In this document: positions 9,746 to 45,564 of the stretch, in pieces | Layout of the letters: the number at the start of each line of letters is the position of its first letter | Numbering within the stretch: the stretch's first letter is position 1 | Source of the DNA: Candidatus Thorarchaeota archaeon | GTDB taxonomy: Archaea; Asgardarchaeota; Thorarchaeia; Thorarchaeales; Thorarchaeaceae | Length of the DNA: 64,000 nt | Assembly: GCA_019057475.1 (NCBI GenBank) | Contig: DXJO01000010.1 | Span: forward strand, 352,001-416,000 | Reading direction: 5' to 3' | Position numbers and translations under genes: made by a program | Notes under the pieces: generated by a model | What the model was told of the DNA's origin: nothing | Seen by the model: only the letters and a program-made list of their open reading frames with translations | Database searches by the model: none

Positions 9746-10441
9746 GTGGTTCCAGTGTCCGAAAAGGATGAAGTGAACTCGAAAGCTGAAGATTCACCCC
9801 TTGGGAGCGTGTTCGAAACTCTAGGTGTTGAGTTCACTGTCATTGACCTAAACTGGTCCCCCGAAGAGGAATCAGACTGGGTCCCAGAGGATGAAGAGGA
9901 AACTGAAGACGCAGAAGCTGAGGACGAAGAGGAGAGCGAAGACGCAGAAGTCGAAGAAGAAAGCGAGTTGGATGATGAACGGGAACAAATGGACCCTAAT
10001 CAACTCCTCCTGCACACACTCGCAACTATGTCCATGAGTGCAATCGAGGACTTGGACCACGACGAGCCGTACGAAAAGGTTCAGTGGATTGAAGACCTTG
10101 CGGAGCGATACCTGTGCCTTATTCCGACACAGATCCACCCTGTTGGCACTGGCTCCGGGATGTACTTGCGCTTCTGGGGATACCTCTGTGAGTTCGACCC
10201 TGAGACAGAGTCAGTCAGCGGCAGGAGGGTGACAATGTCAATCCCCTCAAAGTTAAGGAAGCAGATGGGAGCAGACCCTGAGAGCTTCTCGATGAAGGCG
10301 GACCCTGTCGATGACGCGGTCGTGTTCATGATAATCACGCAATACTACGGTCGAGAAGAGTTCGAGGTAGATGGGCAGAAGAGGAGTGCCCACAAGTTCG
10401 GAGCAATAAACCTCGTGGAGGGTCATTGGTCTGAAGACTAG
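9746..10441 (+). CDS. Hypothetical protein with acidic (E/D-rich) low-complexity segment
   Basis: 231-aa ORF; globular-looking C-terminal half; no known motif. Confidence 0.65.
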   Translation: MVPVSEKDEVNSKAEDSPLGSVFETLGVEFTVIDLNWSPEEESDWVPEDEEETEDAEAEDEEESEDAEVEEESELDDEREQMDPNQLLLHTLATMSMSAIEDLDHDEPYEKVQWIEDLAERYLCLIPTQIHPVGTGSGMYLRFWGYLCEFDPETESVSGRRVTMSIPSKLRKQMGADPESFSMKADPVDDAVVFMIITQYYGREEFEVDGQKRSAHKFGAINLVEGHWSED

Positions 10442-10649: not shown

Positions 10650-10997
10650 TCACTGAATAATCTTTCGGAGGTCCCCTGCAGACTGGGAACAACGACTGCA
10701 CTTCAGGGCGTGTGCCCAGCACCACATGAAGGCAGCATCCTCAGACCTGCCTGTCTTGTCATAGATCAACGCAAGATGAACAAGCGCGTCTGGATTGAGG
10801 GCTTCCAACTCCAGTGACTTCACAAGAGCCTCCTCCGCCTTCTCCAGCTTGCCGTGCGACCTCAGGAACGTTCCAAGGTAGTACCATGCCTGTGCATCCT
10901 CAGGTGCGTATTCAATGCGTTCTCTTATCATCCTCTCGAACTCGCTCATAGGCTGAAGTTCGAGAGAGTGAGTTCCAGTCCTATCAGAGATTGCCAT
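10650..10997 (-). CDS. TPR protein, third gene of GH3-ThiF operon
   Basis: PEDAQAWYYLG...AEEALVKSLEL...NPDALVHLA; SD GAGGAG; 10 bp from the ThiF gene. Confidence 0.75.
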   Translation of the reverse strand: MAISDRTGTHSLELQPMSEFERMIRERIEYAPEDAQAWYYLGTFLRSHGKLEKAEEALVKSLELEALNPDALVHLALIYDKTGRSEDAAFMWCWAHALKCSRCSQSAGDLRKIIQ

Positions 10998-11007
10998 GTT
11001 GCTCCTC

Positions 11008-11919
11008 TCACTGATTCTCCTTTGACAGTACCCCCACCGCTCTCCTGACCAACCAACGCTTCTTGGGGCCGGTCACACTCATCCTTGTGCCCAACAGGTC
11101 GATGTGAAGAGTGGTCGGCACCACAGGGATGCTCCCCTTGTCGAAGAGATATCCATAGACTGCCGTGCTTACTAAGGCAGCATTGAGCCTGCAGGCTGCT
11201 GCTACTGATGGGGGTGTGCCCTGTTTTGCCCGCCTTTTGCCCAACTGGATGTCTATTCCGGTTGGTCGGGCAGACAGGAAGTTCACAGCGTAGCGTTCAA
11301 TGAATCTCTGCCACTCCTCTGAATCGGGGTCCTCAGGTATCTCTCCAAAGAACTCTCTGAAGGATGGACTCCTTTCAGGGTCGAAGATGGCAATGCCAGC
11401 GCCCCACCCAATGACGGGACAGGTGAACACCGGAATGCCTTTCTCCCGTGCAAGGTCGAACATCCTCTCTCTCAGGTGCATCACAGAGACATCGAGCCCG
11501 TCAATGACGATGTCTGCGCCATCTACGAACTCCTCCACGTTGTCCCATGTGACACCGTCAACGTAGGCTCTAACATCCGCATCCGGATTGATCTCAAGAA
11601 TCTCCTGAGCAATCACATCTGCCTTGTTACGGAACATAGTGGACATCCTAGCACCGAGCTGACGGTTGAAGTTAGAGACCTCGAACACATCGGGGTCTGC
11701 AATCCTGAAGTGTTGAAAGCCCATTTGGGCAAGGGTGATGGTGACATCCGAGTTACCACCGACCCCAGCCTGAGCAATCACAACCCTGGATATCATCTGC
11801 TGCTCCACAGACGTGACTATCCCTGTGTTCCGGTCTGTCATCCTTAGGTAGTGGTCGTCAACTGCATGGAACTCGGGGAGGACACCATCCCACCACTTTG
11901 GCTCTGCATCTGACGACAT
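11008..11919 (-). CDS. ThiF/MoeB/E1-family adenylyltransferase
   Basis: AQAGVGGN, IADPDVFEVSNFNRQ, KADV...INP, DIVIDGLD; lacks the Zn-binding CxxC pairs of MoeB. Confidence 0.88.
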   Translation of the reverse strand: MSSDAEPKWWDGVLPEFHAVDDHYLRMTDRNTGIVTSVEQQMISRVVIAQAGVGGNSDVTITLAQMGFQHFRIADPDVFEVSNFNRQLGARMSTMFRNKADVIAQEILEINPDADVRAYVDGVTWDNVEEFVDGADIVIDGLDVSVMHLRERMFDLAREKGIPVFTCPVIGWGAGIAIFDPERSPSFREFFGEIPEDPDSEEWQRFIERYAVNFLSARPTGIDIQLGKRRAKQGTPPSVAAACRLNAALVSTAVYGYLFDKGSIPVVPTTLHIDLLGTRMSVTGPKKRWLVRRAVGVLSKENQ

Positions 11920-11920
11920 C

Positions 11921-13462
11921 TCACGCCGCCTCGCATACTGCCAACACCGACATGTCTGTTGTCAGCGGTACAGGCTTTGCTTGAAGGTGAGTTGCTTTCA
12001 CAAGCTCTTCATGTTGTGACGTTCTCATCTTTGCAAGTGTGGTTGGACCAAGGCCTCCCATTGCGCGAGAGTTGAGGAATTCCCAGTTGGCCTCTCCTAG
12101 AGCGTCCTCAAAGGCATTGACGAAATCTACCGAATCCACGTCACCACGAAACATGCCCGCGATTGTGTAGTGAGGTATCGGACCATCAATAACACCGACC
12201 ACTGAATAGTCCATGAGGTGCGCACCCGTTACCAAACAAGCCTTTGCCATAGCATCAATCACATGAACATCACTGAGCTTTTCACCTGCAAGACTCACAA
12301 CGTTACCCTTGCGACTGATGTGGCGAACAGTGTACGGGTCGATGTTGGAGATTGTGACCATGTCTCCAACTCTATATCTGTACCAACCGTTGCTATTTGT
12401 AAGCAGCATTTCATACCTGCTGCCCTTCTTCACGTCTGAGAGGGGAATCACTGTAGGCTCCTCACAATCAATCTCGGCCTCTGGGATAAATTCGAAGTAG
12501 TTTAGGTCGGGCATGAGTTGTATGCCCGGTTCTGGGAGAATCTGGGACGCCATGTAAGCTTCAGATGACGCATAACCTTCCCACACTGTGACTTGAGGTA
12601 GAATCTTGGCAATCCATTCTCTGTAAGGCTCAACATCAATCCCTCCACTAGCGAACAGCCGCAGGTTAGGCCACAGCTCAGCCACGTCAACCTTGCCATC
12701 GGAGTCCATCGCCCTGCGCAGTCGCTTTTCGTGCTTCGTGCCCTTGAGCTGCTCAAGAAGCCACGGACCGTACTGGTTCTCCATGCGACGGACAAAGGCT
12801 AGACTCAATGTGGCGATACCTTGGAGTGCAGTCACATCACGGGTTGCACAGCACATCGCATATGCCCGCATTTTCTCCTCCATGTCCTGAATCCTGAATA
12901 CATCTGGACCCGGCGAGATTAGACGCGCGAAAACCTTGTTGGCCTTTCGCACATAGAGGCCTGAACCGTATCCCAGGGGCACTCCGTTGATATCTCCAAA
13001 GACCGCTGGGGCACCAAACATAATCATCGATCCATCCAGAATCTTCGTGTTGTCAGGGTGCTGGTTCATGAATCCCATCCACATGCGTGCACCGCCAACT
13101 GAAGCGGTCTTCAACCCCGATGGCGTGATGGGCATATCCTTTGGCTTGCCTGTGGAACCAGAAGTTCTCAGGTACCAGATTACAGGCTCTGCTGTCATTA
13201 TCTTTCCTGTTGGATTCCGATAGACCTCTTCCAAAATGGGCCTCATCTTATTGTAATCCGTTAGGGGAACTCTTTCCGCGTATTCCTCGGGAGAAGCAAT
13301 AGACTCAAAGTCATAATCGCGACCTAGGACAGTGTCCTGATTACGGTTAAGTATCGAAGTCAGTAAGTCTTCAGTCACCTCTACGGGGTGATTGAGAACA
13401 TGCTCAATCTCCCGAGCTTTTCGTTTCGCTACAACCGAAACGATTCGTCTCATGATTGACAT
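11921..13462 (-). CDS. GH3-family acyl-acid amido synthetase
   Basis: TSGSTGKPKDMPIT, YASSE, YFEFIP, YEMLLTNSNGWYRYRVGD, GEKL; ATG 13462 follows SD GGAGGA. Confidence 0.88.
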   Translation of the reverse strand: MSIMRRIVSVVAKRKAREIEHVLNHPVEVTEDLLTSILNRNQDTVLGRDYDFESIASPEEYAERVPLTDYNKMRPILEEVYRNPTGKIMTAEPVIWYLRTSGSTGKPKDMPITPSGLKTASVGGARMWMGFMNQHPDNTKILDGSMIMFGAPAVFGDINGVPLGYGSGLYVRKANKVFARLISPGPDVFRIQDMEEKMRAYAMCCATRDVTALQGIATLSLAFVRRMENQYGPWLLEQLKGTKHEKRLRRAMDSDGKVDVAELWPNLRLFASGGIDVEPYREWIAKILPQVTVWEGYASSEAYMASQILPEPGIQLMPDLNYFEFIPEAEIDCEEPTVIPLSDVKKGSRYEMLLTNSNGWYRYRVGDMVTISNIDPYTVRHISRKGNVVSLAGEKLSDVHVIDAMAKACLVTGAHLMDYSVVGVIDGPIPHYTIAGMFRGDVDSVDFVNAFEDALGEANWEFLNSRAMGGLGPTTLAKMRTSQHEELVKATHLQAKPVPLTTDMSVLAVCEAA

Positions 13463-13530
13463 CTGCTCGAATCCTCCTTGCAGCCCGGGACACAAGTCCA
13501 AGATTGCCTTGTAAGATTACGAGTTCTAGA

Positions 13531-13699
13531 ATATCTTAAGTGGTGGCTCCGGAGCGTCAGGGCATTTTGGGCCGTATACGTGGGCCTTGCTCGTTGAAGG
13601 CCCGTTTAGAATACCTAACCTCATATAAGACGGCCTCAAATCATCAACAGGGCGTTATGAGCAGAGATAGACTGGTGCGACCGTGATAGTCTGTACCCT
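13531..13699 (-). promoter_or_regulatory. Conserved upstream element copy 1 (GH3 operon)
   Basis: Minus strand: box A AGGGTACAGACTATCACGGT (13699-13680), box B GTATTCTAAA (13614-13605), TATA-like CTTAAGATAT (13540-13531). Confidence 0.8.
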
Positions 13700-14000: not shown

Positions 14001-14169
14001 AGGGTACAGATTATCACGGTTGAGGACTCCAATAATGCCACATAATGCCCACATCAGCACAGGGGGGCCTATGGGCTCCTTTGTTAACTTCTAAAGAAAG
14101 AATAGGGCCCCATCAGGCGGGCAGGGTGAGAATAGGTCTACTTGCACGTTCTCGGTAGTTTGAATATAG
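14001..14169 (+). promoter_or_regulatory. Conserved upstream element copy 2 (recombination operon)
   Basis: Box A AGGGTACAGATTATCACGGT (14001-14020), box B AACTTCTAAA (14086-14095), TATA-like TTGAATATAG (14160-14169). Confidence 0.8.
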
Positions 14170-14221
14170 TTTGTTCTCACTGATTGCATCATACAGTGAG
14201 AGCACTGGGAGCGTATGTTCA

Positions 14222-14953
14222 GTGTCGAGGCTTGAACGAATACTAAAAGCTTCAATTGGTCAAGAGGGTCCGGAGACGGACTTGACCATGTTCTTCCAAA
14301 TGGAGTACAACACCCCTGACAGAAGCGTCATACGAGCGCGGATGGTCACCGACCAAAGCATCGCAGTGACTATCGGGCTGAGGAGCGCGATACTTGAACC
14401 CTTTAAGAGATTCCACATACCCTCAGATGGCGAATTCCTTGCGTGCGACATTCTAGGACTGATACCCGCTGTTGCAGTGATGCTGCGGAATCAGAGTCGA
14501 GGGGTGGCTGCGGGAACCATCGAGCGGGACTCGACAACGCGAATCATACTTGCATTCGAGTCTGAGATACCCATGAAAGACAATGGACTGAGAGATCTAG
14601 CATCCACCATCACCTGTACGATGCGGCAGTGGGGTGAGTGGACCAATGTGTTGCTCGGGACTCTTGATCGCGATCCTGTAGTGGGTGACTGGGAAATTGA
14701 CTGGCGTGAGTTTCTTGCTGGAGAGGCTGGATTCGTTACGATGCCGTGGTTCAGATCACTTGGCTTTCAGGACCGCAAGATCGCGCTCTCTAGGACAATA
14801 CTGGCGGCTGAGGCTTTGCTAATCTCAGTTCTCAATAGAAAGCAGCTCATAGACCCCGTCGCAATGCAGGTTCGGGACTGGATGAAATCGCTCAGCCCAC
14901 AGCCACACGTCACTGGATCTCATTACATCACTTTGGAAGAGGAGGTATTCTGA
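14222..14953 (+). CDS. Hypothetical protein, first gene of recombination operon
   Basis: Long ORF (possible start 14171); GTG 14222 follows GGGAG; TGATG coupling to next gene. Confidence 0.7.
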   Translation: MSRLERILKASIGQEGPETDLTMFFQMEYNTPDRSVIRARMVTDQSIAVTIGLRSAILEPFKRFHIPSDGEFLACDILGLIPAVAVMLRNQSRGVAAGTIERDSTTRIILAFESEIPMKDNGLRDLASTITCTMRQWGEWTNVLLGTLDRDPVVGDWEIDWREFLAGEAGFVTMPWFRSLGFQDRKIALSRTILAAEALLISVLNRKQLIDPVAMQVRDWMKSLSPQPHVTGSHYITLEEEVF

Positions 14954-32936: not shown

Positions 32937-33105
32937 AGGGTACAGATTTTAACGGTACACGAGTAGAATCTCCCCTCATAGACCCTATTCCACCAATATC
33001 TCCCATCTTACAGACCATTAAGTATTCTAACAGCACAATACAGGTTTTAAGCACGCATTCGGGACTATCCTATCCTAGAGCCCCCTCTCCAATAGTCTAA
33101 GTATA
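32937..33105 (+). promoter_or_regulatory. Conserved upstream element copy 3 (surface-protein operon)
   Basis: Box A AGGGTACAGATTTTAACGGT (32937-32956), box B GTATTCTAAC (33022-33031), TATA-like TCTAAGTATA (33096-33105). Confidence 0.8.
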
Positions 33106-45395: not shown

Positions 45396-45564
45396 AGGGT
45401 ACAGATTATCACGGTTCATGTATGCAAGAAGCCGACAGAAGGGCGGTGGGGGCCTATGGAGGCCTAAGAATTCTCAAGATGTATTCTAAACCCGCAATAG
45501 GACTCCTTGTACCTCTTTAGGTTCTATCCGCCCTTTATCAGTTTCAACCGACACTTCAAGTACT
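45396..45564 (+). promoter_or_regulatory. Conserved upstream element copy 4 (HerA/VirB4 ATPase operon)
   Basis: Box A AGGGTACAGATTATCACGGT (45396-45415), box B GTATTCTAAA (45481-45490), TATA-like TTCAAGTACT (45555-45564). Confidence 0.8.

Follow-up and report, generated by a model that had tools for sequence, protein, structure and literature searches.

A GH3 and ThiF gene pair of Thorarchaeota as a putative archaeal variant of the N-acyl-amino-acid/oxazolone pathway

The GH3-ThiF operon and its enzymes

The DNA discussed here, which we call the window, is a stretch of 64,000 nucleotides (nt) from a Candidatus Thorarchaeota assembly (GCA_019057475.1, contig DXJO01000010.1, positions 352,001 to 416,000), the genome being that of a Thorarchaeota-like Asgard archaeon of 3.34 Mb and 96% complete. 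Our subject is an operon on its minus strand in which three genes lie head to tail: one for a GH3-family acyl acid amido synthetase (11921..13462, 513 amino acids (aa) from the ATG at 13462), one for a stand-alone ThiF-like adenylating enzyme of the PRK08223 / oxazolone-cluster type (11008..11919, 303 aa) and, as gene 3, one for a small TPR protein (10650..10997, 115 aa). Between the stop codon of GH3 and the start codon of ThiF there is a single base, the junction reading ...GCG TGA G ATG..., and the ThiF stop is followed by GAGGAG and then, 6 nt further, by the TPR ATG. The operon is divergent from an operon on the opposite strand that carries orf260, RadA and XPD genes. A first-pass annotation of this DNA had placed GH3 and ThiF 1 bp apart, in an operon divergent from a recombination operon and headed by a copy of an element, and in all of this it was right. 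It also counted the TPR gene with the pair, and the three genes are indeed co-directional; several TPR Pfam models match the product at 1e-8 to 1e-11. The TPR gene does not qualify as a core part, as it is kept beside the GH3-ThiF pair within the genus and was seen once in another genus, where a 40% identical homolog lies just upstream of GH3.

The GH3 protein matches the Pfam domains GH3_N (1.7e-34), GH3_M (3.2e-17) and GH3_C (4.8e-4) (PF03321/PF23571/PF23572), the GH3_C match falling slightly under its cut-off in the window protein and the domain being carried by the orthologs. Three ANL-type nucleotide-binding motifs, TSGSTGKPK, YASSE and YRVGD, can be read in the translation, the AMP-binding P-loop region aligns at residues 83-130, and the PDB sequence matches are to JAR1 and GH3.x. 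An alternative TTG start at 13501 would add 13 aa, but the orthologs have the 513 aa obtained from the ATG. Plant GH3 enzymes adenylate a free carboxylic acid and join it to the alpha-amine of an amino acid to give an N-acyl amino acid, and from this family chemistry we predict that the window protein is likewise an ATP-dependent ligase of a carboxylic acid and an amino acid. To our knowledge OlsH is the only bacterial GH3 protein that has been characterised. It is also the top NCBIfam match of the window protein (1.4e-41), at 142.6 bits, far below the cut-off of 620. OlsH is a prokaryotic GH3 that makes an N-acyl amino acid, N-acyl ornithine, from free fatty acid and ATP (PMC12493201). The window genome has no GH3 gene besides the one in the window. 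Other Asgard families have tandem arrays of 3-5 divergent GH3 paralogs (G079:C319, G033:C1, G118:C43 and G022), which are 27-33% identical to the window protein and amount to an expansion of GH3 ligases.

With regard to the second enzyme, the ThiF domain (PF00899) is found at 1.5e-30, and the residues conserved across the family, R30, G52xGG55, D75, NxNRQ83-87, K99, D140 and D143, are those for binding of ATP and Mg. The adenylation core is intact and includes the Asp equivalent to D217 of TrzS, a cyclising enzyme of Mycobacterium tuberculosis that is discussed below. Neither the sequence nor the alignments of the family have a Zn-binding CxxC motif or any conserved Cys. Among NCBIfam models the best is PRK08223 ("hypothetical protein") with 199.5 bits, followed by ThiF with 82, MoeB with 68, UbaA with 59 and TcdA with 47.4, the last (model NF011696) against a cut-off of 304. 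There are only two ThiF-family genes in the genome, the other being a canonical MoeB/UbaA-like copy on another contig (C40, 219 bits). The AF2 (AlphaFold2) model of the window protein (pLDDT 83) has an E1-like fold, and the closest solved structure is that of AclA from Tenacibaculum discolor (9EGB; 7.9e-14 by sequence, 1e-16 in Foldseek, TM 0.67/0.81), followed in the Foldseek order by ThiF, PaaA, MoeB and MccB.

The conservation of the pair was followed in 300 genomes sampled from the phylum, 76 of them in the same family. ThiF orthologs were found in 12/76 of the family genomes and in hardly any elsewhere in the sample, and GH3 in 59/76. In all 12 of the other Thorarchaeota genomes in which the upstream side of ThiF is assembled, with ThiF identity down to 47%, GH3 is directly upstream; a thirteenth match (G206) is a C-terminal fragment only and is not among the 12. 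In genomes that lack ThiF, GH3 is followed directly by a CPBP/Rce1-like protease gene, which otherwise follows ThiF. The ThiF-linked copies are scattered over the GH3 tree, where at least 6 changes are required, and these data are read most simply as an ancient pairing of GH3 and ThiF from which ThiF was repeatedly lost. Two ThiF orthologs have one in-frame TGA each (G293:C1:34509-35360 and G179:C4:44498-45211, at loci L009 and L014), which fits ongoing decay of the ThiF step with GH3 staying intact. The idea that ThiF is essential to GH3 is not sustained by this distribution, ThiF being missing from most of the genomes that keep GH3. ThiF was never seen without GH3, and it would seem that GH3 is the conserved core, able to work without ThiF, and that ThiF provides an optional second step.

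Bacterial relatives and phylogeny of the ThiF enzyme

A scan of one genome per prokaryotic species gave 65 bacterial relatives of the window ThiF, with 29-41% identity, from Planctomycetota, Thioalkalivibrio, Desulfovibrio, Bdellovibrionales, Streptomyces, Saccharopolyspora, Pseudomonas and others. By tblastn, a FeeM-type N-acyl amino acid synthase is encoded no more than 6 kb from ThiF in 33/65 of the loci, a flavin-oxidase domain of the nitroreductase superfamily is fused or adjacent to ThiF in 33/65, and synthase and/or oxidase are present in 51/65. Often there are also ABC/MacB/HlyD or MMPL/LolA-like export genes. Judged by gene content, this is the architecture of the OxzAB, TyzACB and TrzAS clusters. 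Those pathways start with an acyltransferase (OxzA, TyzA or TrzA) that produces the N-acyl amino acid. The cyclisation, driven by ATP, falls to TyzB or to the ThiF domain of OxzB or TrzS, and an O2-dependent desaturation to a flavin oxidase, TyzC or a fused domain (bioRxiv 10.1101/2020.06.11.147165; PMC10404671; PMC12856293). When O2 is limiting, the saturated cyclised intermediate accumulates with TrzS (PMC12856293). According to a review of the wider family, no ThiF-like enzyme other than OxzB is known to have a small molecule as its substrate (PMC12596934).

The PRK08223 model gives 347-483 bits on the bacterial stand-alone, synthase-linked ThiFs, and the ThiF-oxidase fusions are matched by PRK14851 at 841 bits, under its own cut-off of 1170. 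The residues that the Thorarchaeota and synthase-linked ThiFs have in common beyond the general E1 core are few (F71, P76, N85 and P237), and we draw no argument from them as to the substrate pocket.

One of the bacterial loci, L123 from Solirubrobacterales, has a complete GH3 gene (L123:3865-5658, minus strand) divergent from a ThiF-oxidase fusion (L123:5992-7905, plus strand). It seems to be an independent bacterial counterpart in which GH3 replaces the acyltransferase. Searching 250 genomes around it for more GH3 and ThiF-oxidase clusters gave 1 further GH3, with no ThiF in its short flank, and the pairing appears to be rare in its class. At another locus, that of a close relative in Victivallales (L076), ThiF (L076:3610-4473) comes directly after a gene for an ICMT/PEMT-like carboxyl methyltransferase (L076:2742-3575), with a hybrid histidine kinase upstream, and a cluster mate of that methyltransferase lies beside ThiF in a Verrucomicrobiota locus (L077).

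ThiF trees were made with 49 rows under LG+C20+F+G4 (the careful tree) and with 87 rows under LG+G4 (the quick tree). In the careful tree the Thorarchaeota ThiFs are monophyletic (100/99). Their sister group (90/67) consists of four stand-alone ThiFs, from Phycisphaerales, Victivallales, Verrucomicrobiota and one unclassified bacterium, and the next group out (94/89) is of actinobacterial ThiF-oxidase fusions. All of these are within a clade of 42 rows (94/95) that also holds the synthase/oxidase-linked ThiFs; in the quick tree, too, the Thorarchaeota ThiFs are inside the synthase/oxidase-linked clade, at an SH-aLRT of 99. A 100/99 branch of the careful tree splits off the ThiF and MoeB of E. 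coli together with the MoeB-like gene of the window genome. The first-pass annotation had raised the possibility that the window ThiF groups with a ubiquitin/SAMP E1, and this split from the ThiF/MoeB/UbaA-like enzymes is the opposite of such a grouping; on the sequence evidence the identity of a protein E1 is excluded.

The position of TcdA, the tRNA ct6A dehydratase, which had been proposed as a comparison, is less sharply settled. E. coli TcdA, represented by one very long branch, sits immediately outside the 42-row clade and shares its side of the deepest split. A tree constrained to unite TcdA with the Thorarchaeota ThiFs is 14.5 log-likelihood units worse under the model of the careful tree, with p 0.032 in the approximately unbiased (AU) test, so that the joint clade is disfavoured, but the rejection is weak, the quick tree giving p 0.57. 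TcdA identity is unlikely from the profile scores, the distribution and the operon context, and weakly excluded by the tree.

The upstream element and the neighbouring genes

The shared element begins with a 20-nt box, AGGGTACAGAYTATCACGGT, which we call box 1. One copy, on the minus strand at 13680..13699, precedes the GH3 ATG by about 220 nt. Another, on the plus strand at 14001..14020, lies before the orf260/RadA/XPD operon, and the two have the same orientation relative to their own genes. Further motif matches on the plus strand are at 32937-32956 and 45396-45415. Four copies in the window compare with 0 expected from shuffles, and these four, within 32 kb, are the only ones in the whole genome. 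Downstream of box 1 every copy of the element has a GTATTCTAAA-like box and, beyond it, a TATA-like box rich in A/T, and the spacing is similar from copy to copy. Before GH3 these are box 2 (GTATTCTAAA, 13605..13614, minus strand, about 65 nt downstream of box 1), in which TTCTAA is invariant, and the A/T-rich box at 13531..13540 (minus strand), about 70 nt upstream of the ATG, which is probably the promoter; both are aligned in 4/4 element copies.

The element heads four units, the first being GH3-ThiF-TPR. The second is the divergent operon, with orf260, RadA, XPD, Hel308-like and FEN1-like genes and ending in a histidine kinase; the third has a 199-aa gene and a gene for a 2608-aa surface protein with Ig/MG2 domains, and the fourth has genes for proteins of 1065 aa and 1457 aa, the latter with several helix-turn-helix (HTH) motifs. 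The box is conserved in two same-genus genomes, and neither it nor the inverted arrangement was found upstream of GH3 in other genera. Co-regulation of the four units within the genus is plausible. Beyond the genus there is a positional association, about 37 family genomes having GH3 no more than about 10 kb from orf260, with co-occurrence of 51/8/1/16, though this overstates the link, since neighbouring genes go missing jointly where an assembly has a gap and the genomes share ancestry. The place of GH3, conserved beside a recombination operon that is itself optional, gives a concrete lead to the biology of that operon.

Rfam and tRNA scans of the window gave no match, and the 320 nt between the inverted boxes are not a known RNA. 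A small open reading frame (ORF) called there in two relatives was discarded, as its frame is broken in the window. In an alignment of three same-genus genomes the roughly 200 nt from box 1 to the GH3 start (13463-13680; alignment columns 500-700) are seemingly more conserved than the stretch between the inverted boxes, and could be a conserved leader, matching no Rfam family. For the divergent operon, the last base of the TATA-like box is 14169, which leaves almost no room before a TTG at 14171, and the start of orf260 is therefore more likely to be the ATG near 14222.

Two neighbouring genes also recur near GH3. The first is for an acidic protein of 231 aa with no Pfam family match (9746-10441, plus strand), convergent with the GH3-ThiF-TPR operon. 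It has a homolog (34% identical) in another genus, directly downstream of GH3 after a 117-aa gene (L051:3395-4045), and is thus the second recurrent small GH3 neighbour besides the TPR protein. The other gene is that for the CPBP/Rce1-like intramembrane protease, of about 550 aa, which in most related genomes is convergent with, and just after, GH3 or GH3-ThiF (L019:5007-6659, L021, L022-L026, L041, L046, L053, L055, L057, L062 and L063). In the window genome the protease copy is on another contig (C3:34946-36526), and has 94% identity to that of a same-genus genome. We considered the protease as an operon member and rejected it, as it is convergent with the pair and on a separate contig in the window genome.

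A putative two-enzyme pathway and its relation to known systems

We give about an even chance to the suggestion that the pair is a two-enzyme small-molecule cassette, in which GH3 would make an acyl-amino acid and ThiF would cyclise it to a saturated oxazolone. In the first step, as expected from the chemistry of the family, GH3 would activate a free carboxylic acid as its adenylate and form an amide with the alpha-amine of an amino acid, so that an N-acyl amino acid results. ThiF, with ATP, would then adenylate the free carboxylate of that product, as its relatives suggest, and the amide oxygen would close the ring to give a 2-substituted 5(4H)-oxazolone, a cyclisation demonstrated for OxzB, TyzB and the ThiF domain of TrzS. 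Neither beside the pair nor elsewhere in the genome was a flavin oxidase of the nitroreductase type known from oxazolone clusters detected. The product would therefore be a reactive azlactone with a saturated ring, unlike the desaturated bacterial oxazolones. The absence of an O2-dependent oxidase fits an anoxic lifestyle. A two-step route of this kind, with GH3 making an acyl-amino acid and ThiF activating or cyclising it, was proposed in the first-pass annotation, and the comparison supports it by the linkage in all 12 genomes and by the synthase- and oxidase-linked relatives; the signal that was suggested as its product has not fared so well, as discussed below.

Several observations weigh against the proposal and have to be set beside this. 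There is no oxazolone-type flavin oxidase in the operon or its flanks, and a bacterial oxidase query gave no match in the 96%-complete genome, which does have generic nitroreductases; nor did tblastn with four bacterial synthases find a FeeM/GNAT-type N-acyl amino acid synthase in the Thorarchaeota loci. A saturated azlactone is prone to hydrolysis and may be a mere intermediate. The PRK08223 cut-off of 266 is reached neither by the window ThiF nor by a distant Thorarchaeota ortholog (176 bits). The four ThiFs of the sister group have no synthase or oxidase within 6 kb, the trees were made without authentic OxzB, TyzB and TrzS sequences, and TcdA as sister is only weakly rejected, the quick tree not rejecting it at all. 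A search for longer fused forms found no GH3-ThiF or other fused protein, which is weak evidence.

The main rival accepts both activation steps and differs in the outcome. The adenylate that ThiF makes from the GH3 product would be captured by a nucleophile from outside (amine, thiol or hydroxyl) to give an N-acyl dipeptide, an ester, a thioacid or an acylated protein, with an oxazolone at most transient. We consider this unlikely. In its favour, ThiF-like enzymes share only the nucleotidylation and differ in the later steps (PMC12596934). The lack of an oxidase that would stabilise the ring, the sister-group bacterial ThiFs without oxazolone partners, the ICMT-like methyltransferase that adjoins ThiF in L076 and is suggested in L077, and AclA (9EGB) as the nearest solved structure all point the same way. 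Against it, no candidate for an acceptor-binding partner is conserved beside the pair across genera, and all characterised members with the architecture of the wider clade cyclise. Whether ThiF belongs to a GH3-dependent pathway at all is questioned by the view that it is a TcdA-like tRNA ct6A dehydratase, or some other enzyme unrelated to GH3 that merely shares the operon. That view can appeal to TcdA being on the same side of the deepest split, with the joint clade at p 0.57 under LG+G4, to TcdA also being without Zn cysteines (PMC12596934) and to there being only two ThiF-family genes in the genome. We think it very improbable, given 47 bits with the TcdA model against 199.5 with PRK08223, the 14.5 log-likelihood units under the site-heterogeneous model, and a ThiF that is in 12 of the 76 family genomes, always beside GH3 and twice with an in-frame TGA, a pattern unexpected for a tRNA-modification enzyme. 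The remaining enzymatic alternative, a ubiquitin-like/SAMP E1 or sulfur-carrier activator acting on a protein C-terminus, has the general E1-like fold and the weak profile matches to UbaA, MoeB and ThiF in its favour. It is close to refuted, as there are no CxxC Zn motifs or conserved Cys, no ThiS-, MoaD- or SAMP-like small gene recurs in related loci, where only the TPR and acidic proteins do, a 100/99 branch of the tree stands between it and ThiF, MoeB and the MoeB-like gene of the same genome, and the canonical copy is kept elsewhere in the genome.

The other question is what the product is for. The first-pass annotation saw it as a pheromone or quorum signal with autoinduction through the shared element: the GH3 product, with or without the ThiF step, would be secreted and would induce both its own operon and the recombination operon. 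The box at only 4 genomic sites, heading four operons, speaks for it, as do the co-occurrence of GH3 with orf260, the histidine kinase that ends the divergent operon and the kinases near four related bacterial loci. We nevertheless find the signal decidedly doubtful, and see no direct support for it or for autoinduction. There is no receptor adjacent to the pair, and no exporter either, unlike the bacterial clusters with ABC/MacB/HlyD or MMPL genes. The Lrp-like proteins to which a ligand was expected to bind did not materialise, no AsnC/Lrp ligand domain (PF01037) being present in the window, and the box is confined to the genus and the co-occurrence is inflated by joint loss of adjacent genes in assembly gaps. 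Even for the bacterial oxazolones there is no settled role, and according to the same line of work tryptazolones are intracellular (PMC12856293). A further speculation, which we put forward with little confidence, is that the GH3 product, which ThiF would activate further in a part of the lineages, serves as a lipo-amino-acid-type cue. It would share a regulon, under the four-copy promoter element, with the Asgard "second recombination / DNA-exchange" operon, the giant surface protein and two multi-HTH proteins, and would be an archaeal small-molecule signal timing DNA exchange between cells.

Returning to the oxazolone cassette, we know of N-acyl amino acids and oxazolone lipids only from bacteria. 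If the proposal is right, oxazolone chemistry extends to archaea and to anoxic life, starting from a free acid by way of GH3 and with no O2-dependent oxidase, and there would be a biochemical role for many unassigned prokaryotic GH3 genes.

From the gene content and phylogeny, the description that suits the pair best is that of an archaeal variant of the N-acyl-amino-acid / oxazolone pathway, based on GH3 and without an oxidase, and comparison with the known systems makes clear in what respects it is a variant. It resembles OxzA/OxzB of Pseudoalteromonas rubra, TyzA/TyzB/TyzC and TrzA/TrzS of Mycobacterium tuberculosis in that an N-acyl amino acid would be made first, followed by ATP-dependent activation of the carboxylate by a ThiF-like enzyme, and the archaeal ThiF is inside a clade of bacterial ThiFs that have that gene architecture. 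It differs in using a GH3 ligase on a free acid in place of a FeeM/GNAT transferase that uses acyl-CoA or acyl-ACP, in having no flavin oxidase and no adjacent exporter, and in its host, an anaerobe-type Asgard archaeon. For the first step the closest parallel is OlsH, the GH3-like lyso-ornithine-lipid synthetase of planctomycetes, which is a prokaryotic GH3 with the same nucleotide-binding motifs and the best NCBIfam match; the window GH3, however, has no adjacent OlsI-like O-acyltransferase and has ThiF as its partner. For the second step AclA (PDB 9EGB-9EGD) is nearest to the window ThiF by sequence and fold, but is only about 22% identical, and no function is transferred from it. TcdA (CsdL), for its part, is ThiF-like and likewise has no Zn cysteines. 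The oxazolone ring that it forms on an N-carbamoyl amino acid moiety recalls the activity proposed here, but its substrate is tRNA and it has no GH3 partner.

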